Origin: Dipteris shenzhenensis
Taxonomy: Eukaryota
Assembly (NCBI GenBank): GCA_047967505.1
Contig: CM106538.1
Strand: one strand, 5' to 3'
Length of the DNA: 64,000 nucleotides
Part shown: positions 4,961 to 44,627 of the stretch, piece after piece
How the letters are laid out: each line of letters opens with the position of its first letter
Numbering within the stretch: the stretch's first letter is position 1
The notes under the pieces: generated by a model
What the model was told of the DNA's origin: nothing
Databases searched by the model: none
Seen by the model: only the letters and a program-made list of their open reading frames with translations
Program-made: the position numbers and the translations under genes

Positions 4961-5026
4961 CGTGGAATTTCCCCCGCCAAAAAATATGCGTGGAATTTCC
5001 CCCGCCAAAAATTATGCGTGGAATTT
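4961..5026 (+). repeat. 28-bp tandem repeat (about 2.4 copies) containing an E2F-like site
   Basis: CGTGGAATTTCCCCCGCCAAAAA(A/T)TATG starts at 4961 and 4989, with a partial copy at 5017. The reverse complement contains TTTGGCGG. Confidence 0.75.
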
Positions 5027-6240: not shown

Positions 6241-6248
6241 ACCTTGTG

Positions 6249-11790: not shown

Positions 11791-11952
11791 AGAAGATTAC
11801 CATCGAGCATGCCCTCTTTCCATCATGCAAAAGAAAAAATAGAGTGACAGCCTGACATTGAGCAAGCATTTATAAGCTCTTGCATTCTTTGAATTAGAGT
11901 GACAGAAGTCTGTATCTGCTTGCTCAATGTCAGGCTATTGAAGCTTCATGTG

Positions 11953-12724: not shown

Positions 12725-12796
12725 GAATGCTCCATCATGCATGCCCTCTTTCTTTATCCCGCCCTCATGCTTCAGTCTAATTTTGCTCTTTCTTGG

Positions 12797-12968
12797 ACCC
12801 GCCCTCATGCAATCACTTATTTCCATCATTCATGCAATCCCTTATTTCCTCACCAATGCAATCCCTTTCTTCATTCATGCAATCCCTTTCCATCATTCAT
12901 GCAATCCCTTTCTTCATTCATGCTATTCATGCAATCACTTATTTCCATCATTCATGCAATCCCTTTCT
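12797..12968 (+). repeat. Short tandem repeats of the TCATTCATGCAATC(C/A)CTT type
   Basis: The motif CATGCAATC recurs about every 21-24 bp. Confidence 0.8.
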
Positions 12969-18822: not shown

Positions 18823-19482
18823 TCATGCAATCACGCTTACATCCTCTTCCCAACCCTGATCCTGCCATTGCGCCCAGATTTCGTCCTTGCAGCTGCTACC
18901 TCCTTCAAAGTGTGACTCGCTTGGCCCCGAGTCAGCAGGGCCACGCTGAATCAAAGATGTATTGCACGTAGAATTATATGAACTGGAAACTGCAGAATAA
19001 CTGGTTGTCAAGCTGCTCGGATCGCTTGACGGACGTGAATGAGACAAATTGCCAGGCTGAACAGCTGCATAAACGATCTTCGAGGGATTGTTGATAGCGG
19101 AACGACAGTTAATAGTATTTCTTCGGTCGTAAGCTGCTCCTTCAGCCATAGCAGCCGTTTGGACAATTTTCGGGCTGTAATCGCCCGAATCTCTAGCGAT
19201 TCCAATCTGTGGACGCGAGTGGGCTGGGAAGTTCAGGCGCGCACCGGGTCCCCGGAGGTAAAGCAAGGCGGTATCATAAGCGCGAGCAGCTGCCTCTGGT
19301 GTGTGATAAGAGCCCAACCATATGCGAGATCTCTTGTGAGGCTCGCGAATTTCCGACACCCACTTCCCCCAGGAGCGCTTGCGTACTCCGCGGTAGATGC
19401 AAGATTTAGTTTTCCCGTTGGATGAATTGCGATTTTGTCGTTGATCAGCATGCATTGGATTCGCAAACTCTAGATCTGTCAT
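18823..19482 (-). CDS. AP2/ERF transcription factor, DREB subfamily (A-5 / group II, RAP2.1-like), intronless
   Basis: Complete AP2 domain [57 protein letters not shown] with the DREB-diagnostic V14/E19. A post-domain [17 protein letters not shown] motif and an acidic C-terminus follow. The first in-frame ATG is at 19482 and the ORF is uninterrupted. Confidence 0.93.
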
Positions 19483-19933
19483 GCTACAAAGTTGTACTCG
19501 TGTACGCAAATAGAAACGGAAGGAAACCAATGCAAAGAGCGTTAATCCTATGTATGAATTTCAAGAGAAAACAAATAACTGCGACAACGGCTGACGAGGT
19601 CTGAAAACTGATCACAATACAAACGGCGCAGCGTGCTACAATATCAATACTGGAACGTGCTTGTATGACTTCGTAAAACGTGCTGATGCTAACTCTACTT
19701 CACATGGGATACAACAATCGAATGGTGGACGAGTTTGCAAGAGAAAGAATGTAACGACAAGCGCTAAGATGGCTACGCCTTGCTGGGCAGCAATCTATCT
19801 TTCTATAGCAGCCGTGATTCGTAAGGGATGAATGGCAAATTGCAATCAATTTTTGTGAAGAGATCATGCCATTTTCTCGTTTAATGACTTGCAGGAGGCG
19901 AATTTTGTGCAATTGGAGCACGATTTTCTTCCA

Positions 19934-23312: not shown

Positions 23313-23467
<155 letters not shown>

Positions 23468-24177
23468 TCACTCTCACATGCACAGAGGTGTAGTCTTCAT
23501 CCTACCTGCTCCATCACCAGCTCTCTCTCTAACAGAGGTGCAATATTCCTCCTGCTTCTTCCATCACCAGAAATTGTTGTCCTCCCTCTCACTCACTCTA
23601 CTGTTGCTACTGTAGGTGACATTGCAGTGTCTAGACTACCTCTCTCTCACACACACTCACACACAGGTGCAAGCTTCCTCCTGCCTACTCCATCACCAAG
23701 AATCCTTGTTGAGTCGGTGTATTCTCTAGTGTGGACTCACTCTCTCTCCAACTACATGAATCATTTTAGACTACATTAAAGGGGCTACTGCAATCTTGTC
23801 AAGACCTGCTTGCAATCAAGCTTTCTTGAAGCTTTGGTAAGTATGCTCACCATAGTCACCAGATCTTGCTACTTCAACTTGCTCTTTTTTTAAAACACTT
23901 CGAGTTATGGATTTGATGTAGAAAGTTGTATGGATTCTTGGTTTATATTGTTGATTGTTCAAAGCGTTGCTTAGTTCCACATTTTTGTATGTGTGCTACA
24001 TAGAATATTCCATTACTCATAGTCTTGAAGTCTTTGTCTCCTCTTCACTATGTTGGGCATCTTCATCTTTGTCTCCTCACTTGTCTTGTTGTCTAAAGTC
24101 CCAATCCTCACTCAATCCTCATGGCACATGAAAAGAAACCCCCAATCTAGCCATAATGACAAATTGCCTATGTTGCA

Positions 24178-28198: not shown

Positions 28199-31100
28199 AT
28201 GTCTACGACTAGCAACCTCAATCTGGAGGCATCTACTAAGCTAGACAACTCCAATTACGACCCATGGAAATACTAGATGGAGACCATTCTTGTACTTCAA
28301 GACATATGGGAGTATGTCGATGGATCTACACCTAGACCATTGGACGATCCAGTCAGCAGTAACTCTACTCCATTTGTTGTCATAGCACCAACAATAGATC
28401 TACAGCTACACAAATAGTTTCTGCACTTGTAGGAGATCCTGCCATTGCCTGAGCACAGGTAGAATGGGATAAGAAAGATAAGTATGCATATCATCTGATC
28501 AAGTAGAATGTGCAAGATTTCATGCTAGGACAACTCAACACCATCAAGACATCGAAAGAAGCACAGGATATGTTCGCAGCTCTCTACGAGTCCAAGAACA
28601 CTTTCAAGATTCTCACACTAAGAAACCAAATCAACCAGAGTTTTCGCAACAGCAGCAAAACCAGTCATGCTTACGTGCTCAAAATCAAAGACTACAACAA
28701 TCAACTTGTAGCAGTAGGAGAGACCATGAGCCTTGCAAAAATGGTTCAAGTCATCCTGAATGGACTAGGAGAGGGATACAAGAATCTAGCCTAGAGTATT
28801 ACCATCCAACAGCAAATTCCAACACTAGAAGAACTTCAATCAGTCTTACTTGGTGAAGAACTCAGGAATCAAGCCGTTCATGCACGCAAAGGTCATTCTA
28901 ATGATCAGGCATTCATAACTTCAGACAAAAGTAGAGGCAGAGGCAGAGGCAGATCATTCCAGCGAAGTAGTCATCATCAGCAACAAAGTCATTAGCAAAG
29001 TCAACATCAGCATCATCATCAGCATCATCCTCAACAACATCAGATTCAGCAAATTGAAAATCATTCCAACCGAGGAAGATTCCAAGGACGTGGGAATGCA
29101 TCCACCAATGTGTCAAACATCCAGTCTAACTACTATCATAAGTTTGGACACTATGAAAGAGATTGCCGTAAGAAGCAGTATGACCAAGGCGGTCAATCCA
29201 GTAGCAATCAAGGGAATTTTTGCGAAAGAGGAAATCATCGTGGTGGACATTCTAGTCACAGTCATTTTGCAAATGAACATGGGAATATGTTTCTTGCAAA
29301 CTCCTTGCAAATGAGGAAATGCAGAAGATTGATACATTGTACCTAGAACTGATTACAATCCAAAAGAGGATCTCAGCTATCAAGTCGACCAAGTAGAACA
29401 AGATCCTTGGTATATCGATAGCAGTGCATCATCTCGCATGACAAATCATCAGGAATGGTTCACAGAGTTGAAACCATTAGAAGGTCAAAAGAATGTCATC
29501 TACACATCAGATAATACACTGAATCCAGTTCAAGGGATAGGCATTATCCCTATGAAAAATTTCATTGGTACAAAAGGATTGGTGAAAGATGTACTCTACA
29601 TTCCGAAACTCAACAAGAACCTCTTGTCAGTAGGGCAAATGATGGAACACAACTACCGAGTCATCTTCGATAGAGATGAATGCACTATCAGAGACAAATC
29701 TAGAAGATTTCAGCTAATAGGAAAAGGTGTCAAGGAAGTACGCTTGTACCAAATGCTAGCTGCAGTACCAGATTTTCATGTCATGTCAGCTCAACCACAA
29801 TAGATGCCACTATCCGCAAAATGGCACAAGAGATATGGACATGTCAATTTCAAAAGCTTGCTAGATCTCAGGAATTAGAATATGGTAATCAGGATTCCAA
29901 AGCTACAGTTTCTTGGAACAATTTGTGAAGCATGCTGCTTCAGCAAACAAAAGAGAACCAATTTTGGCAGAAGCATCTCTCGAGCACGAGGTATTCTTAA
30001 TTTGATACATACAAATGTATGGGGTTATGACCAGACCCGTAGCATCAATAGTTCACTTTACTACTTGACTTTCATCGACAACTACAACAGATATTGTTGG
30101 GTCTACTTTCTAAAAGAGAAATCTAAAGTGTTTTCCTGATTTCAATAATTCAAAGCCATGGTAGAAAACCAAACAGGCAAAAAGATCAAAGTCATGAGAT
30201 CAGATAGAGGAGATGAATACATGTCTTCAGCATTCATGACCTTTGGAAGAAGTCACGGCATTTGAAGACAATTCACTTGTGTAGATACTCCTCAGCAAAA
30301 TGCAAGAGCTGAAAGAAGAATGGTACTTTAGCAGACAATGCTAGAGCAATGCTTAGTGAGAAGCATCTTTCGAATCAGTATTGGGCAAAAAAAATAGCCA
30401 CTACAAACTATTTGCTTAATCAGATTCCTACCAAACCGATACAGGGTATGACACCTTATGAAGCATTCACTGGACATAAGCCACACATTGGGCATCTTCG
30501 CATATTTGGTTGCATAGCATATGCCTACATACATGATGGCCATCATACATGTGAAGTCATGCAAATGCATCATGGTTGGCTATAGTGAAGAAATCAAAGT
30601 AGTACAAGTTGTATTATCCCATCAACCGCAAGGTCATTATCTATAGAGATGTAATCTTTGAAGAGGAATCATAATGGAAAACCTCAAACACACAGGAGAT
30701 AGATTCACCGATTTCACAGTCATCTACAGAAGAGATTGATGAAGAAGAGCAAGAATTTCCAGAAACACTCTAAGTAAAGCCACAACAGCTCAGATGGTCT
30801 ACCAGGAAAAGCAGACCACTAGCCAGATTGACATATGCTCAGAAAGGCAAAGCAATTCAGGTTGAAACCACCAACTATGCTCTTATGACTACCATCATGG
30901 CTATAGAAGAGCCAGTGTACTTCGAAGATTCAATAAACAGGAAAGAAGGCCATAGCAAACAAATGGGTATACAAAGTGAAGTACAATCCAGATGGAAGTA
31001 TTCAAAGATACAAAGCCACACTAGTTTTCTGTATAGTTCTTGATATCACTAGCGACACTCAGTAGATGGAATGTGTACTAGCTCAATGTCAAGAATGCAT

Positions 31101-31575
31101 AAATCTCAATGGTTATCTAGACGAGGAAGTCTACATGCAACAACCAGCAGGTTATGTTGAGCCAAGAAAGGAGAATAAGGTTTGCCATCTTAAGAAAAGT
31201 TTCTATGGCTTAAATCAAGCACCTAGAAGTTGGTACAGTAGAATTGACAAATATTTTGCTGATTTGGGATACATGAAATCCAATGCAGATCATACTCTCT
31301 ACTACAAAGTTCAAGCGGAAGACATTACTATTGCACTTTTGTACGTAGATGATCTGATTGTAACCGGAATCAAGGATAGCTTCATCAAAAAACTAAAACA
31401 AGACTTACCTGCAGAGTTCGACATGAAAGATTTTGGACTTATGCACTATCGTCTTGGAGTTGAGTTTTGGATAGATTCAGACAGCACCTTCATGAGTTAG
31501 CTCAAGTATGTTGACTGTCTCCTGAAGAAGTTTCATATGGCAGATTGCAAGCTTGCAGCCAGCCACTCCCATGGA
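28199..31575 (+). mobile_element. Ty1/Copia gag-pol pseudogene, 3'-truncated within RT
   Basis: Gag KLDNSNYDPWK..M...IWEYVDG, knuckle GHYERDC, protease WYIDSSASSRMT, WHKRYGH, integrase (LIHTNVWG, TFIDNY, TPQQN), and RT YGLNQAPRSWY and LYVDD. The order is PR-INT-RT. Homology stops after ATPME at ~31575, with no RNase H or 3' LTR. Confidence 0.93.
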
Positions 31576-31800
31576 ACCATGGACGATTTTTTCAACTTAG
31601 TTTCGTTAGGAAGCTAAATTTTAATATTGGCATCAAAAGTTTGTATGCCCTAATAAGAACAAATGTTTGAAACATTCGCTAGGATTTGAAACTTATATGC
31701 TTTCTCTATGCTTTAAAAAAATAAAGTTTCACTAAGATTTACATTTTCCCTTCAAAATTCAAAAGGAAAAATAGAAAAAAGTACTACATTCTACCAATAA

Positions 31801-32180
31801 AGAAGCTAGCAAGATTTGGATGCACGGCCAAATCCTTTGAGACCTTGGTGACTTCTTTCAAAGCACTAAGAAGATTTGGTTGTGGCGTTCTTTCAAACTT
31901 GGGGAGATTTGGTCGTGTGGCCAAATCTTGTAGGCTTCTTTCAAAGCACTAGGGTATGGAGAGTTTTGGCCGTGCAACCTCCTCTTGCATGCTTCTTTCA
32001 AATCACCAGGTTCTAGGAGATTTGGCCGTGTGGCCAAATCTTTCAAAGCATTAGGGTTTGGGAAGATTTTGCCACGCTGCCAAATGTTGCTAGCTTCTTT
32101 CAAATCATTAGGAAGATTTGGCCACATGGCCAAATCTTCTTTCAAATCACTAGGAAGATTTGGCCACATGGACAAATCTT
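31801..32180 (-). repeat. Left array of 24-bp palindrome units, mostly in reverse orientation to the array at 33.9-34.9 kb
   Basis: Repeated GGAGATTTGGCC-N4-GGCCAAATCTT...CTTCTTTCAAAGCACTAGG, which is the reverse complement of the right-array unit. An (AAATTC/AAATTT)n tract follows at ~32190-32332. Confidence 0.85.
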
Positions 32181-33061
32181 CAAACGTTAAATCTAAAAAT
32201 TGAAAATCCAAATTTTAAAATTTTAAATTTAAAGTTCAAAATTCAAAATTCAAAATTTAAATTAAAAAGTTCAAATTTGAAATTTCAAAATTCAAATTTC
32301 AAGTTTCAAGTTTCAAATTTTGAAATTCAAATCTAGAGATCCTACTTTCAAAAAAATCATACATGCTTTTCATGATTCACGCTATTACACTTTAAAATCA
32401 TACTATTACTTTAAAAGCAAACCAGAAAATCTAAAACTATTAAAAAACCAAAACTTTAAAAGGCAAAGCTAAACAAACCTTTTAAACCAAGCATAAAAAG
32501 TAAACCTATGAGAAGGAATTGAATTCATCTTCATGGGGGATCAAGTGCTAGGCTCACCTTGTTCTCTCCCTTCCTAGATCTCAAATGTGTAACTAGGGTG
32601 GTTTGAGAGCCTTAGGACAATGTCTTAGATGGGGTAGTTCTTGGAAAACACTCCTCCACCCTTGGTTAGCTAATTGCAAGCAAAAAAGTTCAAAACTATG
32701 TAAAAATAAGAGGTCTCGGGAGGCTCCCCATCCCAGTTTTGTCCTAACAGTGTGTACTTAACTATGTAGGCTTTAAACTTCCATTACCAATTCAACTCTC
32801 CATAGACTCCACATCCAATAGTTGGATGAGAGTTGGATTAAAAAGAGGTCTTTTTTTTTTTCCTTTATTTTTTTGCATTACATGCTTTTGGGGGGATTGC
32901 TCCTTCCCCCCAAAGCATTCTTTTTTGGGGGGATTTCTTCTTCCCCCCCAAAGCATGCTTTTTTTGGGGGGTGTTGTCTTCTTGCTCTTAATCTTGGCTT
33001 GCTTCTCAGGTTTCCTTCAATCGACGAGGCTTCTTGGGTAGGCGCAAAGGACAAGACAAAT

Positions 33062-33620
33062 CTATTTCTTCTTCACAGCCCTCAATGAGGCTTCTGTCTC
33101 GTCAACAATAGTTTGGAGCTTCTCCTTTTTCGTTAATCTTCCCACTTGCTCCTCGCTTCTGCCATGATAGTCTCCTCCTACGATCGCTCTTTCTCGCAAG
33201 TTCTTTCTCGGGCGAGTGCTTCTTGTCTTGTCCTTTCCTATCGTCGACAGGGTCCGTTCTATCTCCAAACGAGATCTCACTAAATAATGGTCCAGTAAGT
33301 CGAGGATTTCATCGATGGTCTCCCTGTTGGGTGAGGCATATCACCTGCTCCAGAAGTTGGAGTAACAGCCAAAGCAATCACACCCAAAGGTGGGTTTATG
33401 AGTTGTAGCACTTGACTTGGAAGACGCAGTAGTCTTCCAGGGTTTCGAAAGGGATTTACCCGAAATCCCCTCTTGACGCTTCTCTCTCCTGGTACAGCTA
33501 CAGATCCACTCCTCTCCTGGATGAAATCCTCTCTTGACGCTATAGCTACTCTCTCTATAGCTCCTACGATTGCTTGAAATCCAAAGAGCACAAGCTCACA
33601 AACAACAATGGCTACTCAAT
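33062..33620 (-). pseudogene. Fragment of a plant uncharacterised protein of the F12F1.11/At1g12020-like family
   Basis: The frame of ORF 33062-33280 extended upstream through one TGA (33341-33343) reads HKPTFGCDCFGCYSNFWSR*YASPNRETIDEILDLLDHYL. This matches the family signature HPPxFxCxCFxCYxSYWxRWDxSPNRxLIHEIIxAFE. Confidence 0.7.
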
Positions 33621-33904
33621 CATCCAAGTAAGAAAACGAAAGAAATCAAAAGTGTACCTAATTCATGCATGTTCTCCATTTTTTCCATTTCAGAACACCA
33701 CGATTTGAAAGAAAGAGTCTTGTAAAAGTAGGAATCTCGAAGTGTGATTTGAAAGTAGGGTCTTTAGTATATGATTTGACTTTCAGATCTTGAAATTTGA
33801 AATTTGAATTCTGTATCTAAGATTTTGAATTTTGAATTTTAAATTTTGAATCTAAGATTTTGAATTTTTCAGATTTGAAAAGATTTGAATTTTAAATTTT
33901 AAAT

Positions 33905-34935
33905 GGGGAGATTTGGCCATACAAGGTTTGGCCATACGGCCAAATCTCCCTAGAGCTTGGTGATTTGAAAGAAGCTATAAAGATTTGGCATCACAACTAA
34001 ATCTTCCTAAACCTTGCTGCTTTGAAAAGATTTGGCCATACAACCAAATCTTCCTCGACACTCATGATTAGAAAGAAGATAGCAAGATTTGGCCGCATGG
34101 CCAAAGTGATTTAAAAGAAGTTAGAAAGATTTGGCATCACAACCAAATCTCCCCAAATCCTGCTGCTTTGAAAAGATTTGGCCGCATGGCCAAATCTCCC
34201 TAGACCCTTGTGATTAGAAAGAAGCTAGCAAGATTGGCCGCATAGCCAAATCTCCCTAAACCCTCGTGACTTATAAAAAGCTAGAAAGATTTCGCATCGT
34301 AGCCAAATCTCCCCAAACCTTAGTGCTTTGAAAAGATTTGGCTACACGGCCAAATCTCCCCAAACCCTGGTGCTTTGAAAAGATTTGGCCGCATGGCCAA
34401 ATCTCCTCAAACCTGGTGCTTTGAAAAGATTTGGCTGCATAGCCAAATCTCCCCAAACCTGGTGCTTTGAAAAGAATTGGCTGCACGACCAAATCTCCAT
34501 AGAGCCTTGTGATTAGAAAGAAGCTAGCAAGATTTGACCGCACACAAATCTCCCCAAACCTTGGTGCTTTGAAAATATTTGGCCCTCCATAGACCCTCGT
34601 GATTAGAAAGAAGCTAGCAAGATTTGGCCGCACGGCCAAATCTCCCTAAACCTAAGTGATTTAAAAGAAGCTAGAAAGATTTGACTGATTTGAAAGAAGC
34701 TAGCAAGATTTGGTTGCACAGCCAAATCTCTCCAGACCCTAGTGCTTTGAAATAAGCCCACAAGATCTGGCCACAAGGCCAAATCTCCCCAAACTTTGAT
34801 GCTTTGAAAGAAGCCCATATGATTTGGCCACACATCCAAACCTCCCCTTCCAGTGCTTTAAAAGAAGCCCATAAGATTTGGCCGCACGGCCAAATCTCCC
34901 TAGTGTGGCCAAATCTCCCTAGAATCTAGTGCTTT
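33905..34935 (+). repeat. Right array of roughly twenty ~47/57-bp units, each with palindrome AGATTTGGCC-N4-GGCCAAATCT
   Basis: Short unit AGATTTGGCCGCACGGCCAAATCTCCCCAAACCTTGGTGCTTTGAAA; the long unit adds GAAGCTAGCA. A (GAATTT)n tract precedes it at ~33790-33902. Confidence 0.92.
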
Positions 34936-34950
34936 CTCAAATCTACTACT

Positions 34951-37863
34951 ATGTTTAGTGTCAATTCTAGATTCTATTTCAGATATGTTTATCGATAATG
35001 TGTTTTGTCTAACATTAAAGATTATAAAGATGATAGTTTGTATATTGATTGGGTTTTTTACAGGAAAGACACAAATGTGAAGAAGGTTGAGAAAGTTGTA
35101 AGTGGATTTGGAGAAAAAAGCATACATTGGTACTTTGACATATATAGTATTGAGGGAGCACAATTGACACGAGTTTACTTATTTGTTTTGTTACCTAATA
35201 AAAGTGCATACACTTTTGTTGGACCGGTACATCGAATCACTAAAGATGTGGTTGGAAAAGAGGGAGATATTGGATTGTTGATCATTATAAATCAAAATAA
35301 GAAGTTTCTCTTGGATCCCAGCAATTATGAAGCATCTCGTATGAAGTCTGATGTATGAAGTCTGATGTAGATGACAACATGCACTCAAGAGGCTGGATAA
35401 GTGTTGAATCGATTGTATTGACACACTGACAACAATCATTGAATCATATCACAAAGTTTCAGCAACATTAAAGAAGCGTAAGAGTGGGGAAGGAACAAAG
35501 AAAGGAAAGTCGACTATGGTTCAAGCACCAGGTGGTAGCAGACAAGGGGCAAAGAAAGGAAAGCTAACTATAGTTGATGTACCACAAGAAGGAACACCTC
35601 CAGAGGGTATGCTAGCAGTTGTGGAAAGAAGCAGTGGTAGTGAATTGGAGCCAAGTGGAAAGGTCATAGGAAAAAAAGGGCAAAAGAAACCATCAGGCTT
35701 GGTGGAATATGAAAAATACTACCCATTCGGGTTGCATGCAACATTTCCAATTCCAGTTGCAAGATGTCAAAAAGCTCCTCCAAGCTATGTATATAGAGGG
35801 TTGAACAAAGAGCATGTGGAGAAGCTTGCTACGGATTTCGGTTATAACTCTAGGCCTCCTGCTGCTGTAGCGGATTTAATGCCTTTCAATCCTAAATGAA
35901 AAGCAGCCCCTGGAAAGGGTAGATAAGAAAGATATAACCAAGTGCCACTACTGGATACTATCTGGACAACATTCAATATATGCTGCTAAAATATTCACAT
36001 CTAATGATGATAACAGCACGGCCCAAAGAAAGAACTACTACCGCACCCGCCAGGCGAGGATTGTAGTGAATTGTCCCACACGCTATTGTGTGGAGATATC
36101 AAAGATGGCAAACCTAGAGTCTCAAAATATCTTAATACAATCTCCATACATTGATATACTTAAGTAGGTGAGGGGACAATGGATTCTCTTTAATAGACCC
36201 AAGAAATCACAACAAGGGCTTGCAAAAGGACATCCAGATCGTGAGAATTGGGATGTAAATACAGATTTTAATTATGAATCATTTTTTACAAGTCTTTTTT
36301 TTTAATTATTGCATTCTAATGGATTCATATATTTTGCAGGCATTAATTGACACTGGCAAGGTAACATTAGGCAATAGCTTTACCACGAAGGATGTACATA
36401 TGATAATCACAAGCAATGCCATTTATGATGGTTGGATCTCCATCCTTGAGGATTACATTGCATGCAAATATTCACAAGATGGAAAATGCCGTAGGCAACC
36501 CACAGTCTTAATGTTTAGATGCTTGCATGGATTGAGTGATGATCAAATTGGTCAAATTCAAAATGACATTAAGGAAGGTAGAGTAGTCATAGCTAAAACA
36601 AAGATTGATGCCATGATTCTTGATATTGAAGGACGAGCTATGCAGATCAAGAGAGATGCTGCACTACAAGAAGAACTTTATATGTTTATATCGGCAGAAC
36701 GGCCTTCTTTAATGTTAAAAAATTGGGATGAGTGCAGATTACATTTTAAAATTACTCCAGAATTGTATCATCGGATTCGTGGTTGCTATGACTCATGGTT
36801 AAAAGTGAAGCTTCAACAGGGCAAGGAAACTCCACCATTGCCTGATGCTGCAAAGGGGTATCTGAGGTGGATTATGGGACAAAGTGAAGGTGCAAGTCAT
36901 GGACCGAATTCCACCCGGCCTTGGAGGTTCTACACATTCGGTTCAAACATGGAGGGAATGGAATTTATACATAATGTGTACCAAGAGCCAATGGCAATAG
37001 GGGTTGCCTTTTTGGATGTAATGTATGGACCAAGCAGAAGTAGAAATTAGAATGAGGATCGCTTTAAGTGTTTGTTGAAAAGCTTGATGACAATCGCTTC
37101 TCCCCTAGTGCAATTCCTTCTTGTGGTGTTCTTGACCATGGATCATGTATCATGTTTGAAGAATGCATTAAATAAGACATGCCAACAATATAAAATACAT
37201 TTCGGTTGCCTTAATTTTGAAACTACATATATATTTGTCACTGGATCTATGGATGGCTTAATTGCCTGTGTACTGGTAAGCAAGGAAAAGCATTTCAACG
37301 ATATTGAGTGCTATACCAATGCACAATGTAAGCCATCAATATATATTACAGATGAAAAATATGAAAAATCAAGTGGTGCAGAAGAATCAGGTGATGAGGA
37401 TGATTATGACGAGGATGATGATGATGAATTTGACATTGAATTGTCCTTGAAAAGAAAATGTTCAAGTATCATGAAAGACATGATCATGGGTTTCTGTCGA
37501 GAAGATGAGTATGTATTGGACTTGTTCTCTGAGGGGCTTGCTGCAATAGAGTCTCTTTCTTGTAAGAGGCGTGTTGTTTCAGTTGTTGAGACTTATGAGG
37601 AGTTGGCAAAGGTTGAAAGTATATGTTGCACATATGCCTATAGTAATCATGAAATTCGACAATGGGCTGGCTTGCAAGAACCAATATTGGCAATAGAGGG
37701 GGTACCAAAAGAAGATGATACAACTGAAGGTGGAGGGGATAAAGAAATTGATACCATACCAGGACAAAAAGAGCTTCAACCCTTAAATGAAGAGCAGCGT
37801 GAGCATTTACAAAAACACGCTTCAAAGTTTTGGGAAACAGAAGAGGAAGCAACAGGTCCTTGA
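34951..37863 (+). pseudogene. ParB/Srx-like domain fused to a beta-class N4C/N6A DNA methyltransferase-like domain; one intron; disrupted
   Basis: ParB-like part: FPIPVARC...VYRGLNKEHVEKLATDF, then after a frameshift near 35897 YWILSGQHSIYAAK (35949-35990). A phase-0 intron GTAAAT..TTGCAG at 36255-36339 joins ENWD to ALID. ORFs 36274 and 37072 share a frame and are split by one TAG (37048). Motif IV-like FLDVMYG (37009-37029) precedes motif X/I-like KRKCSSIMKDMIMGFCREDEYVLDLFSEGLAAIESLSCKRRVVSVVE. The start is uncertain. Confidence 0.6.
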
Positions 37864-38568
37864 AATTGTCCTTTTATATGGTGTTCGTGTTTTCCATATG
37901 TTATCTTGCTATATTCTCCATATGATGTATTAATTTTGTTCCAAAGATCTTTTAATATTACTTGGAAATTTCTTCTATCTCATTGCCATAATTCAAACAT
38001 TCATATGTATTCTTGAATATATTTAATTTTATATATTTCATGAAAAGATGTGTTTGCATGTTGTAATACCTTCGGAGTGTGATACACATCCAAATTTATT
38101 TATGAGTTCATAAATGTTAAAAAGTGTGTTGAGTCTTGATCATGATAAATGAATTAGTGTAAATTGTTGTCTCTATCCTTATTCACTTCATATGAATGCT
38201 CAAATATGTTTTGGCCGCTTGGCCAAATCTTTTCTTAGTGGGAACACTCGGGCAATGCTAGATAATGTTGGACTCCACTCTATCTATTATGCAAAGGTTT
38301 TTGGCATTGTAAGGATATGTAGTTTTGGGGATTAAAATAACTTGAAAGGGTATAGATTCAACAACTTTAGGGGGTATACTAAGCATATGAACATGAATGC
38401 TTTTTTTTTTTTAGTATTCCAATCTTGTTTTGAAAAAGAAAAACATGAATGCTTTCACACAAACAAATTGCATTGAGAACACACAACCTAAAGTTTGACA
38501 ATTTGGTTTTCCATCTCAATCTTCAATTTGTTTCTACTTATGAATTTTATTTCCTTGTTTATCAACAG

Positions 38569-39831
38569 ATATTGGCCATCTCAATTTCACATCGCTAGAA
38601 GCATTGCCTGTACATGTGACATCTGATCCAATGATTTGTTATGTGCCTAATTTGAACATTAACATGCAAGTTCCAAGCTCAACATGGTTGATTGAAAATG
38701 TTGAGGATGCAATGTCTAGAGTTAATGTTCCATTGACAAATGTGGATGCAAGCTTAGAAGGTAAAGGAGAAGATGCAATGTCATTGTATGAAGCCAAGGT
38801 GCAGGAAGAAATCTTAGAAGGTAAAGGAGAAGACATAATGTCACCCTCAGAAATAATGTCAAAAGAGGTGATAACAAAAATAAGACTAGCAGTGATAATA
38901 GATTTGAAAGGTTTATTGCTCGAGCGTTGTTTTTTGAAGTCAAATAAACATATGAGCTTGCACAATGGGAAGCATTGGCTTGTTCTCCATCCTGGGTGTT
39001 TAAAGTTTCTACAATGGTTGCTCGATCACTACCATGTTGGCATTTGGTCCACTGGAGGAGAAAAGGGCATGGTGGACACTTTGGAGCACCATGTTAACAG
39101 AAAGTTTTATTTCTTCATGGTTTGGGGTGCGATGGCATGCCACAAGCATACAAAGAGTAGAATCATTTGACCAGATAGGATGAATGTGGAAGCAGAGTTT
39201 AAACCATTAATGAGAGTGTGGTGTTGTTTTAAAGAGGAATGCAAGCTAGCAAGAACAGTGTTCTTACACGGGTTGTGTTAATCCAGCAAAAAATTACATT
39301 TTCCCTACAAAATTTGATATAGATTGTGGTGATTCTAGTTTGCTTCATGAGTTATTACCGTACCTACAGATGCTAGATGATGCAGTAGATGTGCGCAGTG
39401 CCATCTCTTCTAACAGATTTGGTCAAGCTCCGATTGTCAAAGGGCATGATATGTTCTATTATTTTCAACCAGTGATCCTTGAATTCAAAGAAAAAAACAA
39501 AGAATTTCTCGAAAGGATGAATGTCAAATCTCATATGTCTACTCGTAGTTCAAAAAAAGACATAGAGAAAGGTATTACTTCACCTATAACCAAAACTAGA
39601 GTGAGAGGGACTTGTCCTACTACAAGAAGTATGGTGCATGCTCAACATGTTACATTGAATGAAGGGGAAGAATGCATGCTAGGAAAAATTATCAAAATGG
39701 GGCCATTGAAAGATAGTGAGGCAAAATGCTTTGCTATGGTTCTTGGATGCAAGGAAAGGGGAATCACTGCCGATGCTGCAAGGGCATTCTTAGCCAACTT
39801 GATTCGATTTTATTGCATAGACAACCCTTAG
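38569..39831 (+). pseudogene. FCP1/NIF-family HAD phosphatase-like gene (plant C1271.03c-like type), disrupted
   Basis: LAVIIDLKGLL (motif I position), LHPGCLKFLQWLLDHYHVGIWST, FMVWG..C, KPLMRVW, RTVFL (the DDSP motif appears deleted), NPAKNYIFP, LLPYLQMLDDAVDVRSAISSNRFGQAPI. A splice acceptor TTTATCAACAG ends at 38568. There is a TGA at 39168 and a frameshift. Confidence 0.75.
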
Positions 39832-40076
39832 GGAATGTGAGTGATCTTGTTAATTAGAGTTGCAAACACAAATGCTCAGCTAAAACATTTGTACCTAAAT
39901 TCTGATTTATATTTGGACACTATTTGGTTAGATTCGATTTGCAAAACATTGTTTCAATTTGTTTTGTGAAAGAATTAATAGACATTGAGTTAGTACCTTG
40001 TCCAAAAAATGCTATGTGCTTTGTGATGTGAGTTTGTATTCCTCCACTAAAAGAATGTTTCTTTGATTTTAAACAT

Positions 40077-40634
40077 ATGATAGGTGTTGCAGATTGTCCT
40101 GAAAAGTTGAAGAGCTATCTTATTACAAATTTTGATCCTGCATCCAATGGCTTATGGAAACATAAATTGCCCATACCCATTGAGCACATGTTCGAAATGA
40201 ATGGCATCCATTATGAAGTAAAGAAATCAACAATACCTGGGGCAGGATATGGTCTTTTTGTACATACGAGCATCAAGAAGAAACAAGATTTGATGGTATA
40301 TAATGGTCCAAAGTATGATTATGATACTTGGATATCTCTCCTCAAGTTTTTCCCAAGGATAAAGACTTATGGAATGTTTGAAGATCCATTCATAGAGCCA
40401 TTGACAGATGTGAAATGTATTGTGGGAGATGTATTGTATGGAAACATTGCTCAATATATAAATAGCTCAATGTATTATAAAGAAAGAACAAATGTTATAT
40501 TTGTATACATCCCTAAACTACCACCTTGGGCTCAAAAGTCACAAGGAAATTTGAGTGCCCATGGCTACATTACTGTGCAAACCATAAAGGATATCTCCTT
40601 CGGAGATGAGCTACTTTGTGAGTATGAATACTAG
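40077..40634 (+). CDS. Stand-alone SET-domain protein (lysine methyltransferase-like); open ORF, possibly a terminal exon
   Basis: YEVKKSTIPGAGYGLF (motif I GxG), LMVYNG, GNIAQYINSS (RFINHS position), ITVQTIKDISFGDELLCEY (ELxxDY). No pre-SET or post-SET Cys clusters. Confidence 0.8.
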   Translation: MIGVADCPEKLKSYLITNFDPASNGLWKHKLPIPIEHMFEMNGIHYEVKKSTIPGAGYGLFVHTSIKKKQDLMVYNGPKYDYDTWISLLKFFPRIKTYGMFEDPFIEPLTDVKCIVGDVLYGNIAQYINSSMYYKERTNVIFVYIPKLPPWAQKSQGNLSAHGYITVQTIKDISFGDELLCEYEY

Positions 40635-41937
40635 TATGGAATTGTTAATGATTATGTTAAATGATGTGGTGCGAAATTGGCTATATGTCAATGGTTTTGA
40701 TTACATTTAGTACAAGAAAGCAATTTTAAAAAAGGTTTTTATCAAGACCATGTCTCTGAGTTTCATGAGCTCTATTGTGATGGAGAGTTTCATGAGCTCT
40801 ATTGTGATGGAACGGTGTTTTTAAACACCACATTTATATGATGGATGTCAAAGCTCTACCATAATCCTATTGCTGCATATGTCAATACTGCAATTTATCA
40901 ATATAGAAACATATGCATTTGACATTAATTTGATACATCTAATATACCAAATAAAAATTGACAATTGTTGTAAGTTTAATTTTGTTTTTGAAGACCACAT
41001 TTATATGATGGATGTCAAAGATCTATAACAATCCTATTGCATATATCAATACTGCAATTTAATTTACTCCAATGAATCTTCCTAACACAACATCTATAAA
41101 TTGGCTTTTGTTTGTGGTTTCGATGCATATGAAACAACAAACATCTTTCTTTCACTAGCAAATCAACAAATGTTTTGGCCATGGAGCCATGTTCACATCT
41201 ATTAAGGCCTTTTGCCATAGCGACATACGGAAGATTTTTGCTTGGGTTTCTAGGAATTGGGAAAGTATTGTGCATTGAAACTTGGGTCCTCAATGGAGCT
41301 AATGTTTCAATAAAAAACATCAAATTTTACTTTTGAAGTGACTATATTTTATTTTGTGGGAATTGGGGATTTCCCAAATTCTCTAATATAGTGTTATAGA
41401 TGACATGCATGTTGTAGGTCACTGAGAAACAACCAAACCTCTATGTCAAGGTCTTCTGCATTTTGAGTTACGCAACGCACCACTTTGCATTGGAACACCC
41501 TGGGTTACCAGTTGCCATGGATGATTCGTGAAAGAGAACCAAACTTGCAAATGGGTGAAATGCAAGTGAGAGAACTAGGAGGAAAAGTTGGAATGCAGGC
41601 AACAAAGCCCTTTTAGGCAAGAAAGATGCCTTGGGTTATCTATTGCCATGGATGGAAGGGGGACGAAAGCAAGCAAGAGAACTGGGAGGGAAAGCAAGAG
41701 AATCCTAGACTTGAGAAAGCACATTTGAATCGTTGATTCATACAAGCTAGAAAACTAGTTTAGGAGGGAATTTGAAATTCACATTTGAGTTCGTGATCTT
41801 TTTTTAAAATGACTCATTGTTAGGTTTATACAATCATATATCCATAAAGTTTTTTTTTCTCTCTTATTTTGTGAAATTATTTGGTATTTTCTTAATTTTC
41901 TAAACATTACATTACCTGTCTTGTGATTGGTGGAGGG

Positions 41938-42510: not shown

Positions 42511-42659
42511 GTATTGAAGGAAAATTTTGTTCGTCTCTAGTTTGCTATGAACTCTCTCTATTCTTTTTTCAGTTTCTATTCCGCTGCGCCGTGTAATTTA
42601 ACAGAGAGTGATTTTTCATTTTGGCCAAAAGGCCCCAAAATGAGTTCCCTTTTTTCCTA

Positions 42660-43363
42660 ATGAGCAAAAGAGAGAAAGAGAAATAATGAAGAAAGAAAGT
42701 AGGAGAAAGAGAGGAGGAGAGAAAAATGGAGAAAAAGAAGAGAGGAAAAGAGAGAGAGAGTAAGAGAAGAACAAAGAAAGAGAGCAAGAGAGAAAAGAGA
42801 GGAAACGAGAGTAAGAGAGAGAGAGAGGAAGAGGAAGAGACAGAAAGAAGAAGAAAAAAGAAGAGAGGAAAAGAGAGGAAAAGAGAAAGAGAAAGAGAGA
42901 AAACTTGGGAAAAGAGAGGAAGAGAGTAGGAGAAACAGAGAAAAGGGAGGAAAAGAGAGAAAGAGACGGAAAGAAGAGAACAAGAAGAAAGAAGAGAGAG
43001 GAAAAGAAAGAAAGATAGTAAAAGAGTAGGAGAAAGAGAGAAAACTTGAAAAAAGAGAGGAAGAGAGTAGGAGAAAGAGAGAAAAGAGAGGAAAAGAGAG
43101 GAAGCCAGGAAGAGAGAAAAGAGAGAGGGAAAATAATAGAAAACAGAGGAAGAGAGAAGAGAGAAAGGAAAAGAGAGGAAGAGGAAAGAGAAGAAGAGAG
43201 AAAAGAGAGAAACTTGACTAGGAGAAAGAGAGAAAGAGAGAAAGAGAGGAAAAGAGCAGAAAGAGGAAGAGATGAAAGAGGAAAGAGAGAAATACATGAA
43301 GAGAGAAAGAGAGGAAAAGAGAGAGAGAAAGAGAGAAGAGAAGAAAGAGGAAGAGAGAAGAGA

Positions 43364-43408
<45 letters not shown>

Positions 43409-43475
43409 GGGGAAGAGAAGAAAGAGGATAGAGAGAAAGAGGAAGAAAGAAAGAGAGGAAGAGAGGAAAGAGAGG

Positions 43476-43531
<56 letters not shown>

Positions 43532-43625
43532 GAGAGAAAAGAGAGGAAAAGAGAGGAAGAGAGTAAGAAAAAGAGCGAGACAAAAACAGAGGAAGAGTGA
43601 GAGAAAGAGAGAAAGAGATGGAGCG
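42660..43625 (+). repeat. ~960-bp GA-rich purine tract with (GA)n runs
   Basis: Purine-only stretches and (AG)n at ~43370-43400 and ~43480-43525. Its position upstream of a TnpD start mirrors 11953-12724. Confidence 0.95.
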
Positions 43626-44627
43626 AGTGAAGGGAGATAAGGGCTCTACACCCATCACATTCGCTAGCACGTAAGGCACTAGCAAATAACCATTACAACA
43701 TAAAAATAAAATAAAAAGAAAGTAATGTAGAACTTTCATACCTAGAGCTGAAGAATATGAGGCGACCTAGAAGCAAAAGAGAGAGGTTTTGATCGGCTCC
43801 CCTATAAAATAAATCAAACACCTCTCTTTTTTTTAAAACCAGTGTAGGTGAAGCAAAAACTATTGGGAGCAACAAAGCAAGGGAATGAAGCAACTTTGCA
43901 ACGGAAATCCTTACTATAGGCAAGCAACTAGAGCAAAAAAAAAGCAAACAACCAAAACAAGAGGTATAGTTTTTCTCTACATCTTCCTATTTCTTATGGT
44001 TCTTCTTAGAGGAAAGTGAAAGGGCATTGTGAGGGAAAGTAGAGTAACTTGAGGAAAAGTAGAGGAAAACACAGCAAACAAATAACTTAGAAAGCATAAA
44101 TTTTGAAAAGAAAGAAAGAGAAGAGAAGCACATACCTTGAAAGAAAGGGAGCAAGAGGTTTGTTGCAAGACCTAGAGGTGGAGATGGAGATTCATGGAAG
44201 GATGGAGAAGTGAGAGGTGGGGAGGGAGCTTTATCTATAGGGATGCAAAACAAAGTCAAATGGATGGTGAAATGTGAAAAACAGCTAGCAAAATAGAGTC
44301 ATAGGAGAGAGAAGCATGGGCACATAGATTTGGCTATTTTTGCCAGAAAATTGCCATTAGATATATATTGATGGTTGTAAATGCACATCGTCGGTATCTC
44401 GTCGGTATATACTGACACTTATCCATCGATATGTATGAACAAAATATGGCTTTCATCAGTATATAGTGATGGATAGGGGGTTTGGCAACATGTTGACAAA
44501 AATAGGGTCTGAAGTCAGTATATACTACCTGAACAAGGAACTTTCCTAAAATTGATGGATGCTTGGGTGATTTTTGACTCTTTTGGTCTTGACTTGGCTT
44601 TTTTGTTGTGGTTTTGGACGTGTGCAG

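Follow-up and report, generated by a model that had tools for sequence, protein, structure and literature searches.

Several described systems approach the locus analyzed here, each in a different respect. In plasmid partition by ParB-parS or SopB-sopC, where the sopC repeats are 43-bp long, the likeness lies in a putative ParB-superfamily gene adjoining an array of short palindromes, which in our locus have a spacing of roughly 45-57 bp. CACTA/En-Spm transposons share large size, short-motif arrays in direct and inverted orientation near one end, an element-encoded protein other than the transposase and, at the right edge, TAGTG. In bacteria and phages, ParB domains are fused to beta-class N6A/N4C methyltransferases (ParB_N with N6_N4_Mtase; ParB-terminase loci), so that a ParB-type domain is followed by a methyltransferase fold, as in the gene described below. 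One study derives eukaryotic methyltransferase clades of haptophytes, chlorophytes and chytrids from phage ParB loci (PMC4738411). N4CMT of bdelloid rotifers, a beta-class methyltransferase gained by horizontal transfer, reportedly acts together with a SET-domain enzyme (PMC8885841), and a SET gene likewise stands beside the gene of our locus. DUF3723 (PF12520), an auxiliary gene of fungal Starships, is described as mobile-element-associated and of unknown function (PMC9156397, 10.1101/2025.02.28.640899, PMC11162782, 10.1101/2025.11.25.690456).

The window, a 64,000-nt stretch of contig CM106538.1 from the fern Dipteris shenzhenensis, probably contains at 31.8-41.4 kb a dead copy of a dispersed, many-copy and undescribed selfish element whose protein would bind the element's own palindromes. 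The conserved core is a lineage-specific 22-bp palindrome array and one large intron-bearing gene, and the family is otherwise known only from hypothetical proteins of the fern Adiantum nelumboides and from further assemblies. A sequence-only reading had proposed a chromatin toolkit cargo of three compact genes. Co-oriented reading frames with NIF and SET Pfam matches do lie downstream of the arrays, and the motifs DVMY, DLKG and INSS occur where that reading placed them. However, two of the three genes are one protein, as the "ParB-MTase" and "FCP1" parts form a single gene at 35.06-39.83 kb in which the ParB-like, methyltransferase-like and NIF parts go together with a conserved intron.

This gene, on the plus strand throughout, is colinear with A. 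nelumboides hypothetical proteins of about 1,100-1,400 aa, two of which (P0057 and P0060) align colinearly over 35062-39813 in tblastn. Residues 3-101 of both proteins place the N-terminal domain (WY.D.Y...G motif) at 35062-35352; it is present in 38 family proteins (phmmer, E <= 3e-4), and in the window copy its expected start has no ATG. A frame-shifting 14-nt tandem duplication of 2.2 copies lies at 35339-35369, and the tblastn alignments change frame between 35352 and 35663. The ParB/DGQHR-like domain (YWILSGQHSIYAAK), with weak family matches, extends to the end of exon 1 (35663-36254) and carries a frameshift between 35887 and 35913 and a TAG at 36165-36167 where homologues have Q. A phase 0 GT..AG intron (36255-36339) follows at a site conserved across the family. 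Exon 2 (36340-37863) encodes a helical domain and then a degenerate beta-class amino-methyltransferase fold, with DVMY (37015-37026) at the motif IV position, an acidic run (37392-37427), a motif I-like VLDLFSEGLAA (37513-37545), a TAG at 37048-37050 in place of the W of homologues and a TGA at 37861 at its end. Between this fold and the NIF part is a linker or intron (37864-38867) containing one solitary palindrome at 38208-38229. The first part of the NIF/FCP1-like HAD domain (38868-39266), located by Pfam and homologue alignment, has DLKG (38901-38912) where DxDx is expected. It is interrupted by an in-frame stop at 39168-39170 and by a frameshift near 39266, at the point corresponding to LIDD.P of the relatives. 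The remainder of the domain and a C-terminal helical tail (39265-39831; tblastn and alignment) are found in 19 family proteins at E <= 1.4e-13, and the stop at 39829-39831 matches the end of the homologues. With at least seven disabling lesions in the large gene, the window copy is, as had been claimed, pseudogenised.

The NIF assignment holds, weakly in the window itself (E 3.9e-4, 20.6 bits, under the Pfam cut-off of 21.8) and at up to 5.8e-17 in homologues. The proposed amino-METHYLTRANSFERASE stands at the level of fold only, as neither the window ORFs nor 54 relatives have a Pfam match. In the AF2 model of homologue P0005 (pLDDT above 90 for residues 1-410), all 37 of the listed Foldseek matches at E <= 1e-3 fall among DNA N6A/N4C methyltransferases, either of the beta class or of type III, and the predicted model thereby confirms a beta-class amino-methyltransferase fold, as fold only, for the exon 2 region. 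ParB kinship is suggested weakly, by the PHROG "ParB-like partition protein" in three of 23 members (best E 0.032), by TIGR03187 DGQHR in another count of 3/23 (best E 0.01) and by ESM features. Direct tests were blank and left the ParB claim unconfirmed: Pfam ParB_N matched no window ORF and none of the 54 + 23 family members scanned, sequence profiles of the region had no match in the PDB, hhalign against one plasmid ParB-like protein returned a probability of 0.05, and the predicted model of the region was of poor quality.

The methyltransferase fold is devoid of the catalytic PP(Y/F) as well as of a glycine-rich SAM loop, and the FCP1/NIF fold lacks the DxDxT acid. PP(Y/F/W) is found at motif IV in 0 of 44 family members, and most of 50 aligned members have just one G in the region of motif I. 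The second Asp of DxDxT is present in 0 of 16 members, the window included, and the first is also missing in 10 of the 16. Since the odd motifs are family-wide, they are not due to decay of the window copy; of the earlier suggestion of readers or decoys, or merely decayed domains, the former fits and the latter does not account for the motifs.

Among 1.84 billion representatives, 51 relatives were found at E <= 1e-3, and a ParB-like profile recovered 55 more, 35 of them named A. nelumboides; no prokaryotic relative was found. Nearly all A. nelumboides relatives are on contigs of different size, suggesting dispersed loci. PF03031 is present in 15 of the 55 profile relatives and other Pfam families in none (precomputed Pfam). 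Segment matches were obtained for 105 of 108 family proteins: 12 have the full NT-PARB-MID-MT-NIF order, three have PARB-MID-MT-NIF and none of the 105 is permuted. The 7.5-kb contig L006 carries the whole gene colinearly at 1138-6991. The domain order is N-terminal domain, ParB/DndB-like (DGQHR-type) domain, helical domain, methyltransferase fold, acidic linker, FCP1/NIF domain and helical tail, and the order from N-terminal domain to NIF is kept in every multi-domain relative, in agreement with the view that the block is no chance juxtaposition.

The intron site is likewise conserved in the family, since the tblastn alignments of L001, L002, L003 and L006 are all interrupted there, at one position of the protein, for about 164-226 nt. 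Of 23 short relatives, 18 have V directly after W[DEKN], in agreement with read-through into the GT donor, and YWI..GQHS shows little or no variation among 23 relatives. All five loci have an open exon-1 ORF, of 416-513 codons, and exon 1 is under purifying selection with a rough dN/dS of about 0.2 (0.17 for L001/L002, 0.19 for L006/L007), the values being rough because dS is near saturation (1.4-1.7). All but one of the related loci come from a single contig set (JAEIGA01...) and so may represent one genome.

A conserved intron, purifying selection and conserved motifs are also what a host gene would show. Under such a scenario a regulator of chromatin or transcription, its promoter elements repeated, was expanded in this lineage by duplication, and the window holds a pseudogene that is not mobile, which would also suit our failure to find mobility machinery and termini. 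This is unlikely, given that the non-coding linker, 3' region and arrays are repeated at the depth of the coding part and are 93-97% alike. Moreover, A. nelumboides has at least 35 annotated copies, and many of these are truncated or joined to parts of retroelements. Lineages only 25-35% identical to one another, several in number, exist side by side in one genome, and the window copy lies within nested repeats beside a truncated Copia.

The window has 22 matches to the pattern GATTTGGCCNNNNGGCCAAATC (<=3 mismatches), most of them upstream of the gene, where chance would give 0.03; none of 100 shuffles of the window reached 22. Six sites are at 31813-32178, 15 at 33925-34896 and one alone at 38208, so that the palindromic arrays seen by the sequence-only reading are indeed two mutually inverted arrays, together of 21 copies of a 22-nt palindrome whose ancestral form would be GATTTGGCCGCGCGGCCAAATC. 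The left array (31808-32185, plus strand; six copies, spacing 42-113 nt) lies at the left edge of the repeated unit, where word depth, about 220 in the Copia, drops to about 100 in passing from bin 31294-31690 to bin 31691-32087; the Copia reverse transcriptase breaks off as reported, with RVT_2 ending at about 31552, profile position 236 of 244. An AT-rich (CAAATTT)n run (32189-32332) borders the left array on its inner side and has an inverted partner at 33785-33904 (inverted pairs I18, I20). A private insert of about 1.46 kb (32333-33792) sits at the centre of the palindrome that the two arrays form. In other copies the arrays meet without it (joints 32285->33827 and 32332->33793 in source-species DNA contigs of runs X2 and X3), and its depth is 0-5 over 32882-33675, as contig word depth and not copy number. 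The right array (33902-34903, minus strand; 15 palindromes in units of 46-57 nt) is inverted relative to the left (pair I1, 107 nt, 88% complementary) and stops about 150 nt upstream of the coding region.

The arrays are a conserved partner of the large gene, which the sequence-only reading had missed. Six related contigs include at least 430 nt upstream of the gene (L001, L002, L003, L006, L007, L008), and all six have a repeat array there. In five of the six it is a lineage-specific 22-nt palindrome, CCTATGGCC..GGCCATAGG in L001/L002 and GGCTCAAACTTAAGTTTGAGCC in L006/L007/L008; the repeat of L003 is 21 nt and non-palindromic. Extra palindromes occur in the linker or intron of L005, L006 and L007, and those at 4440-4870 of L006 and 2491 of L007 are in the same place as that at 38208 in the window. 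Palindrome type tracks protein clades.

Such tracking is expected from shared descent alone. Upstream arrays could also be ordinary promoter repeats.

The unit at 34.9-41.4 kb, including SET, is a high-copy repeat in the source species. DNA contigs 93-97% alike from two 2.6-Gb runs span 34907-41389 at an even word depth of about 95-150, these being contig word depths and not copy numbers. The claim of a mobile element is thus upheld in its multi-copy part. The 3' non-coding part (40635-41393, plus strand) has short direct repeats of 27 nt, twice at 40758-40811, and of 82 nt at 40816-40897 and 40983-41061. Pfam finds no transposase in eight plus-strand ORFs and three minus-strand frames of 31.6-41.5 kb, as had been noted, and no reverse transcriptase, recombinase or replication genes inside the unit. 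Terminal inverted repeats, target duplications and empty sites were likewise looked for and not found, and mobility is deduced solely from copy number and dispersal.

The last 37 nt of the unit (41357-41393) are very high-copy and end in ...TATAGTG, which at 41389-41393 reads CACTA on the opposite strand. The unit may therefore derive from a larger DNA transposon of a known kind, such as CACTA/En-Spm, either as its accessory (ORF2-like) module or by deletion, with the arrays as ordinary subterminal repeats and the transposase supplied in trans, a possibility that we regard as real although clearly the lesser one. In CACTA elements a second protein (TnpA), which varies between lineages, binds arrays of subterminal repeats, and the unit is without an internal transposase. 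The 37 nt are also far more abundant than the rest: bin 41219-41615 has a depth of about 3000 with loose contig ends at 41357 and 41395, flanks after 41395 are diverse (agreement 0.44-0.48), and in other copies of the repeat the inner sequence before 41357 is different but consistent, a pattern that non-autonomous relatives with a common terminus would give. However, the 37-mer may belong to a neighbouring element. The right-end 29-mer (<=3 mismatches) matched only itself in the window, with no inverted copy, and local alignments in search of one scored 22-34 at best, where shuffled sequence averaged 22.7 and reached 38. At a candidate left end, 31782, the flanking AAG does not match the TTA after 41393. 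A CACTA transposase domain is found in 0 of 55 relatives (precomputed Pfam) and 0 of 54 scanned, and in none of six loci does a transposase lie between the gene and the array that abuts it.

Downstream of the gene, a separate 200-codon open frame (40032-40634, plus strand) contains a SET domain at residues 72-198 (40245-40625), a call that holds weakly (E 1e-4, 23.1 bits against a cut-off of 22.4), with INSS at 40458-40469 replacing NHxC. A 1231-nt source-species contig of depth 140 bridges the end of the large gene and SET, and the sole source-species contig covering SET has a 5-nt indel relative to the window inside the ORF. Relatives of the frame were not found; SET is missing from 110 family proteins and from all eight related contigs, including 510 nt after the gene in L006. 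SET did not prove to be part of the family and is probably an add-on of the source species' lineage of the element, not its core. The lack of SET relatives and of linkage outside the source species would be in line with a satellite and remnants of unrelated genes having come together by chance. We give this the least credence of all, in view of colinearity in other genomes, the recurring array-gene association and the contig bridging gene end and SET.

For the arrays and the ParB-like, methyltransferase-like and NIF parts, chance juxtaposition is refuted by that colinearity and recurrence.

Giant viruses of algae carry SET, FCP1-like phosphatase, DNA methyltransferase and ParB-like genes, and the same set in the window could recall an endogenised fragment of a large DNA virus with chromatin-modifying genes, as had been suggested. 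This is close to refuted. Among 2.9 million viral contigs, 19 matched by pattern but none of them was confirmed as a relative, and no viral hallmark domain or core gene was found on the plus strand at 25-34 kb and 40.6-49.6 kb or on the minus strand at 31.6-41.5 kb. Furthermore, the domains are fused in a single gene, conserved at 25-35% identity, with a spliceosomal intron at a conserved site.

Returning to a selfish element, a dimeric protein may read its own palindromes, with the dead methyltransferase, the helical module or both as sequence reader. The ParB-like part might then act in loading, bridging or nicking, and the pseudo-phosphatase might dock on a phosphoprotein, for instance the Pol II CTD. 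In the array the element would have a site in cis through which it is controlled, maintained or mobilised.

We could not find a description of an array combined with a gene for a ParB-like domain, dead methylase and dead phosphatase. By protein-language-model features, not alignment, the nearest named cluster is DUF3723, with scores for the ParB-like part of 0.96/0.95 (188/178 shared features, 15/30 matches) and of 0.92 for residues 225-770, and the fern gene is likewise mobile-element-associated. Unlike the Starships of Pezizomycotina, the host is a plant and no tyrosine-recombinase "captain" was seen; Pfam DUF3723 had no match in the 54 + 23 members scanned. Compared with CACTA/En-Spm, the fern element has arrays on only one side of the gene and is without a TIR pair, a 3-bp duplication or a TnpD or TnpA Pfam family. 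Unlike ParB-parS or SopB-sopC, it is a eukaryotic nuclear repeat with only candidate ParB kinship and putative palindrome binding, without the CTP-binding arginines, and no ParA-like gene was seen with it. Whereas bdelloid N4CMT is reportedly catalytically intact, single-copy and domesticated, the fern gene lacks the catalytic motif and is repeated. In contrast to the ParB-methyltransferase fusions, the fern family has no sequence-level match to either Pfam family, no prokaryotic relative found and, family-wide, neither the catalytic PP(Y/F) nor the SAM loop of those enzymes. It has another residue (GQHS) at the position of the ParB-type Arg, and its gene, multi-copy in plant genomes, has gained a spliceosomal intron along with a NIF fold and an N-terminal domain.

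The sequence-only reading had described three separate co-oriented genes, two of which, the ParB-methyltransferase and FCP1 frames, prove to be one. The plus-strand frames at 34999-35358, 35408-35899, 35880-36167, 36259-37863, 38544-39170 and 39250-39831 are pieces of this single gene, and the homologous family proteins P0057 (1125 aa) and P0060 (1246 aa) are colinear with the window over 35062-39813. The copy is pseudogenised, as had been supposed, with at least seven lesions relative to its homologues: the ATG is absent from the gene start, a 14-nt tandem duplication lies at 35339-35369, the frame shifts between 35887 and 35913, TAG codons at 36165 and 37048 stand where homologues have Q and W respectively, an in-frame stop is found at 39168, and a further frameshift near 39266 falls at the LIDD.P motif of relatives. 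A GT..AG intron at 36255-36339 (plus strand) occupies a conserved site; tblastn alignments to the related contigs L001, L002, L003 and L006 have a gap at the equivalent place in the protein. The final exon-1 codons, W[DEKN], are followed by V in 18 of 23 short relatives, which is consistent with read-through into the GT donor. Two RNA runs with the same species label as the DNA runs gave scattered reads, 85-95% alike and about 1x deep, on both strands of 35.2-37.2 kb, with no spliced reads over the intron at that coverage; a read pile-up at the acidic run 37392-37427, whose flanks are unlike, is a low-complexity artefact.

An exhaustive HMMER search of 1.84 billion representatives, with exon 2 translated across one TAG as the query, returned 51 proteins at E <= 1e-3. 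Seven of the ten best clusters looked up had a named member, annotated in every case as a 'hypothetical protein' from the fern Adiantum nelumboides, and in four of the ten a Pfam NIF domain lay downstream of the matched part. Searching with a profile of the ParB-like part added 55 proteins. Of these, 35 are named A. nelumboides, and their entries give nearly all different lengths for the longest contig, which suggests that these 35 members lie at dispersed loci. The NIF profile PF03031 matched 15 of the 55 and other Pfam families none. When five reference segments were searched against 108 family proteins, 105 had at least one match; the full order of N-domain, ParB-like, helical, MTase-like and NIF parts was found in 12, the order complete except for the N-domain in three, and a differing order in none of the 105. 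Pfam matches to ADDT (E 5e-4) and to the hAT dimerisation domain, each in a single family member, are treated as one-off or chimeric gene models. In the A. nelumboides gene models P0013 and P0104, family sequence is joined to pieces of retroelement RNase H or of the hAT dimerisation domain (Pfam E 2.6e-5 and 3.3e-4), suggesting gene models drawn over nested repeats.

One scan of metagenome contigs yielded eight related loci. The entire gene is colinear in one of them, L006 (7.5 kb), at 1138-6991. Exon 1 is open over 416-513 codons in five of five loci, and its dN/dS is 0.17 for L001/L002 and 0.19 for L006/L007, with dS near saturation. Family relatives were found neither among viral contigs nor in one genome per prokaryotic species. 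With no confirmed viral-contig relative, no hallmark domain in the scanned frames and a conserved intron, descent from a large DNA virus fails as an explanation, and with it the earlier suggestion of an endogenised viral segment. Searched against the PDB, window exon 2 gave a chance match only, and the family profile A1 low-complexity matches only.

The AF2 model of the family protein P0005 is confident over residues 1-410, and in it residues 163-398, with pLDDT mostly >90, are predicted to form a Rossmann-like fold with the beta-class circular permutation. All 37 matches listed by Foldseek against the PDB at E <= 1e-3 are beta-class or type III DNA N6A/N4C methyltransferases, and the window copy aligns with the P0005-type methyltransferase region at 27-33% identity. 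On this predicted structure and its matches, the beta-class amino-methyltransferase fold of the family is confirmed, so that the earlier domain call holds at the fold level. The PF01555 (N6_N4_Mtase) profile matched neither the window ORFs nor 10 relatives, nor any of 54 relatives at E <= 5, among 25 of 46 families listed. Beta-class methyltransferases carry the catalytic motif IV (D/N/S)PP(Y/F/W) and the glycine-rich SAM loop of motif I, FxGxG. At the place of motif IV, PP(Y/F/W) is found in none of 44 aligned members, where D plus TTH, AAH or NTE stands instead, or, in the window copy, VMY; the region of motif I has the form D.F(S/A).G..(S/T), with a single G in most of 50 aligned members. 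Judged from these alignments, the methyltransferase catalytic site is absent family-wide.

The FCP1/NIF call was likewise sound, PF03031 being strong in homologues (E 5.8e-17 and 1e-14) and slightly sub-threshold in the window ORF (E 3.9e-4; 20.6 bits, just below the cut-off of 21.8); the P0005 model is poor over its NIF part. FCP1/SCP phosphatases of the NIF type use the catalytic motif DxDx(T/V). In the family this motif takes the forms LSLCG (nine), LDLNG (five) and LSLSG (one), and IDLKG in the window copy; none of the 16 sequences has the second Asp, and 10 of the 16 lack the first. The later NIF motif LIDD.P is retained. The motifs DVMY and DLKG had been flagged as non-canonical, belonging to readers or decoys or else merely decayed; because neither PP(Y/F/W) nor the second Asp occurs in any aligned sequence, they are family-wide non-catalytic variants and not decay of the window copy.

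Ahead of the gene, tandem-repeat and self-comparison tools delimit a left array block at 31.81-32.19 kb and a right one at 33.90-34.90 kb, built of units of 46-57 nt and mutually inverted (arms 31899-32005 and 34686-34792 are 88% complementary). Each unit holds one 22-nt palindrome. The palindromic arrays noticed from the sequence alone are borne out by 22 matches in the window to the pattern GATTTGGCCNNNNGGCCAAATC (<=3 mismatches) against 0.03 expected, a number reached in 0 of 100 shuffles. Of these copies the left block has six and the right block 15, and a solitary one lies at 38208. The central four bases vary (GCAT, ACAT, GTGT, GCAC), possibly through CpG decay from an ancestral perfect palindrome, GATTTGGCCGC/GCGGCCAAATC, a form we infer from the listed copies.

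Depth was followed in two DNA runs that share a species label, each of about 2.6 Gb; they contain 35 and 43 contigs at least 99% alike to the window, which fits their being the source species. Source-species contigs link the two array blocks directly, through joints 32285->33827 and 32332->33793, and contig depth is near zero over 32882-33675; therefore the ~1.46 kb between the blocks is an insertion private to the window copy. This insert, 32333-33792, sits at the centre of the array palindrome and has a 37-nt G/C-run repeat (TTTTGGGGGG...CCCCCCCAAAG) in 2.3 copies at 32886-32971; its part 32485-32881 is genome-repeated, at depth ~150, and the remainder has a word depth of 0-5.

Sequence of 430 nt or more ahead of the coding region is available for six related loci (L001, L002, L003, L006, L007 and L008), and each of them has a repeat array there. 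A 22-nt palindrome is the repeated core in five of the six, with a sequence that differs from that of the window: CCTATGGCCACACAGCCATAGG four times in L002, with similar copies in L001; GGCTCAAACTTAAGTTTGAGCC five times in L007; and TGCTCAAACTTAAGTTTGAGCA four times in L008, with the same type in L006. The sole exception is L003, in which a non-palindromic 21-nt repeat, TTGGACAAGTGGTGGACCTTG, occurs in 15 copies (1-500 and 3460-4256) on both sides of the first two exons. Further copies lie in the intron or linker after exon 1 or exon 2 in L005, L006 and L007, and the window likewise has its copy at 38208. Palindrome counts are two to three times those of mononucleotide shuffles (51 versus 20.7 in the window stretch, 15 versus 5.0 in L007). 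Thus the array and the gene are one conserved module. The co-occurrence in fixed order that the earlier reading looked for is found for the arrays and the ParB-like/MTase-like/NIF gene; it does not extend to SET, which is unlinked in the eight loci.

A tree built on the ParB-like core groups L005-L008 in a single clade with full support and places L001 and L002 in another, with the window apart from both. Palindrome type therefore tracks protein lineage, a relation that is descriptive only, as kin share labels. Among proteins 25-35% identical, the length and position of the site are the same and its sequence is different. The simplest reading is that each family protein would recognise the palindrome of its own element as a dimer, and the catalytically dead DNA methyltransferase may serve as the sequence reader.

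The SET ORF (40032-40634) is open for 200 codons and co-oriented with the large gene, 200 nt past its stop. Pfam SET (PF00856) is marginal, narrowly above its cut-off (E 1e-4; 23.1 bits versus 22.4; profile positions 1-104 of 105), so the call stands, and the best PDB sequence match is EZH2 at E 0.31. SET methyltransferases have NHxC and ELxxDY-type motifs; as read from the sequence, INSS replaces NHxC here, with the N retained and the H lost, and GDELLCEYEY is kept at the C-terminus. Relatives of the ORF were found neither among proteins of 'longer' or 'near' lengths, nor in 110 family proteins (E <= 10), nor in the eight related loci, and in no relative is SET fused to the large gene. A source-species contig of 1231 nt (depth 140) spans 39317-40547, that is, the gene end and most of the SET ORF, and SET is therefore part of the repeated unit in the source species; relative to the window, this contig has a 5-nt indel at 40379, within the ORF. 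SET is treated as a lineage-specific passenger of uncertain activity. The candidate cassette noticed in the sequence is a real finding, and a more coherent one than first thought in that array and gene form one module and two of its 'genes' are one; it is less coherent in that SET is peripheral.

Source-species contigs 93-97% alike to the window span 34907-41389 at an even word depth of about 95-150, and depth over the neighbouring Copia element is 220-450. At the left edge of the unit depth shifts between 31.6 and 31.8 kb; at the right edge contigs end at 41386-41389, within a 37-nt stretch, 41357-41393. The stretch 41357-41395 (37-39 nt, GTGGGAATTGGGGATTTCCC...TATAGTG) has a word depth of ~3000 in the two DNA runs, about 20 times its surroundings; upstream of it other contigs have consistent yet different sequence, and flanks beyond 41395 are diverse. 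On the opposite strand it starts with CACTA, and by sequence 41357-41393 looks like the end of a CACTA-like or MITE-like family of high abundance. The main rival reading, that the unit is the accessory part of a known transposon, CACTA-like or other, takes this TAGTG right edge as a CACTA-type terminus, and a truncated member whose left end was perhaps lost would be compatible. However, no inverted partner of the right end lies within the window, the triplets flanking the candidate ends differ, leaving no 3-bp target duplication, and the unit frames scanned contain no transposase domain (TnpD); we consider such an origin unlikely. A joint 32138->41371 in DNA contigs was set aside as unreliable, having only 25 nt on one side. 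Pfam finds no mobility gene in eight plus-strand ORFs or the three minus-strand frames of 31.6-41.5 kb, in agreement with the earlier statement that the block has no transposase.

The window is repeat-rich plant DNA, as marked by an AP2-domain ORF on the minus strand at 18823-19560 (Pfam E 1.5e-12), which probably represents an AP2/ERF gene of the host, whole or in part. The Copia element (~28200-31560, plus strand) retains gag, Pol_BBD, gag_pre-integrs, rve (integrase) and RVT_2 with several frame changes. Its RVT_2 match stops at ~31552, profile position 236 of 244, so that it is cut off directly after the reverse transcriptase, close to the break at ~31575 seen before. Because the window has no Copia LTR pair and the plus strand of 40.6-49.6 kb no Copia continuation, insertion of the unit into Copia cannot be used to define the unit ends. 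A separate retroelement is represented by an RVT_1 reverse-transcriptase ORF at 61150-61779 (plus strand; Pfam E 1.5e-20), and a tandem repeat of period ~190 nt, in four copies 84-90% alike, lies at 9342-10086. Purine-rich low-complexity arrays at 11930-12830, 23315-23475 and 42570-43770, with 10-12-nt periodicity and strong GC and AT skew, match one another, direct and inverted, across ~20-30 kb.

On balance we favour, with some reserve, a selfish repeat family, so far undescribed, that encodes a catalytically dead multi-domain protein able to read the element's own palindrome array. If so, fern-type genomes contain an abundant repeat family with a protein architecture named in no profile library; of the Pfam, PHROG and NCBIfam families, NIF alone passes threshold on the family proteins. 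It would also mean that two enzyme folds were long retained in catalytically dead form and that a DNA site co-varies with its protein, the 22-bp palindrome and the protein being a directly testable protein-DNA pair. At least 35 A. nelumboides 'hypothetical protein' gene models are probably repeat-derived and could be masked. The literature searched holds no description of the family; Repbase-type libraries and supplements lay outside that search, and a catalogued consensus may exist.

The ParB-like part of the protein has the motif Y.YWI.(S/D)GQHSI.AAK, invariant or nearly so in relatives; within (S/D)GQHS, this holds for G, H and S. We take GQHS to resemble the DGQHR/GxxR motifs of the ParB/Srx/DndB superfamily, although the family has no Arg at the position of the conserved ParB/Srx arginine. 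As predicted beforehand, TIGR03187 DGQHR was the most-matched NCBIfam family (three of 23 members, best E 0.01); PHROG 1033 'ParB-like partition protein' led by member count (three of 23, best E 0.032), and ParB_N accounted for four of the 30 nearest named clusters by ESM features (0.91). Pfam ParB_N (PF02195) matched none of the window ORFs, 54 relatives or 23 further members, and profiles A4 and A5, the latter from a deeper alignment, found nothing meaningful in the PDB. Against a single plasmid ParB-like sequence hhalign gave a probability of 0.05; this reference was one ParB_N match in the F plasmid NC_002483, and its viral relatives (four loci) were too close to it. The P0057 model is usable only at 430-760, with pLDDT <50 over residues 196-399, the ParB-like region, because the alignment is shallow there. 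The ParB-like call is the weakest of the domain assignments. The family might, tentatively, be a new kind of eukaryotic selfish element, conserved only in its array of cognate 22-bp palindromes and in one protein joining a ParB/DndB-type domain, a dead-methyltransferase reader and a pseudo-CTD-phosphatase. It would then be the nuclear equivalent of the ParB-parS modules of prokaryotes, or a case of transposase-free spread or maintenance, and possibly a bacterial or phage ParB-methylase module that became a eukaryotic DNA reader.

A second comparison comes from ESM features, by which the ParB-like part has its top-scoring neighbours in DUF3723 clusters (scores 0.96 and 0.95; 188 and 178 features in common; 15 of 30 matches); residues 225-770 score 0.92 for DUF3723. 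No Pfam match to PF12520 (DUF3723) was found in 54 plus 23 family members, and the likeness is a lead from ESM features. Four reports describe DUF3723 as an auxiliary gene, conserved in the Starship transposons of fungi, whose function is unknown (PMC9156397, 10.1101/2025.02.28.640899, 10.1101/2025.11.25.690456, PMC11162782); our literature search found no text combining DUF3723 and ParB. Starships have a captain tyrosine recombinase (DUF3435) at the 5' end; in the window no recombinase domain was found in the frames scanned (eight plus-strand ORFs, the plus strand of 25-34 and 40.6-49.6 kb, and the minus strand of 31.6-41.5 kb). The family may be a plant relative of the Starship DUF3723 genes, in which case it would provide the first structural reading for them and a lead on the nature of DUF3723 in Starships.
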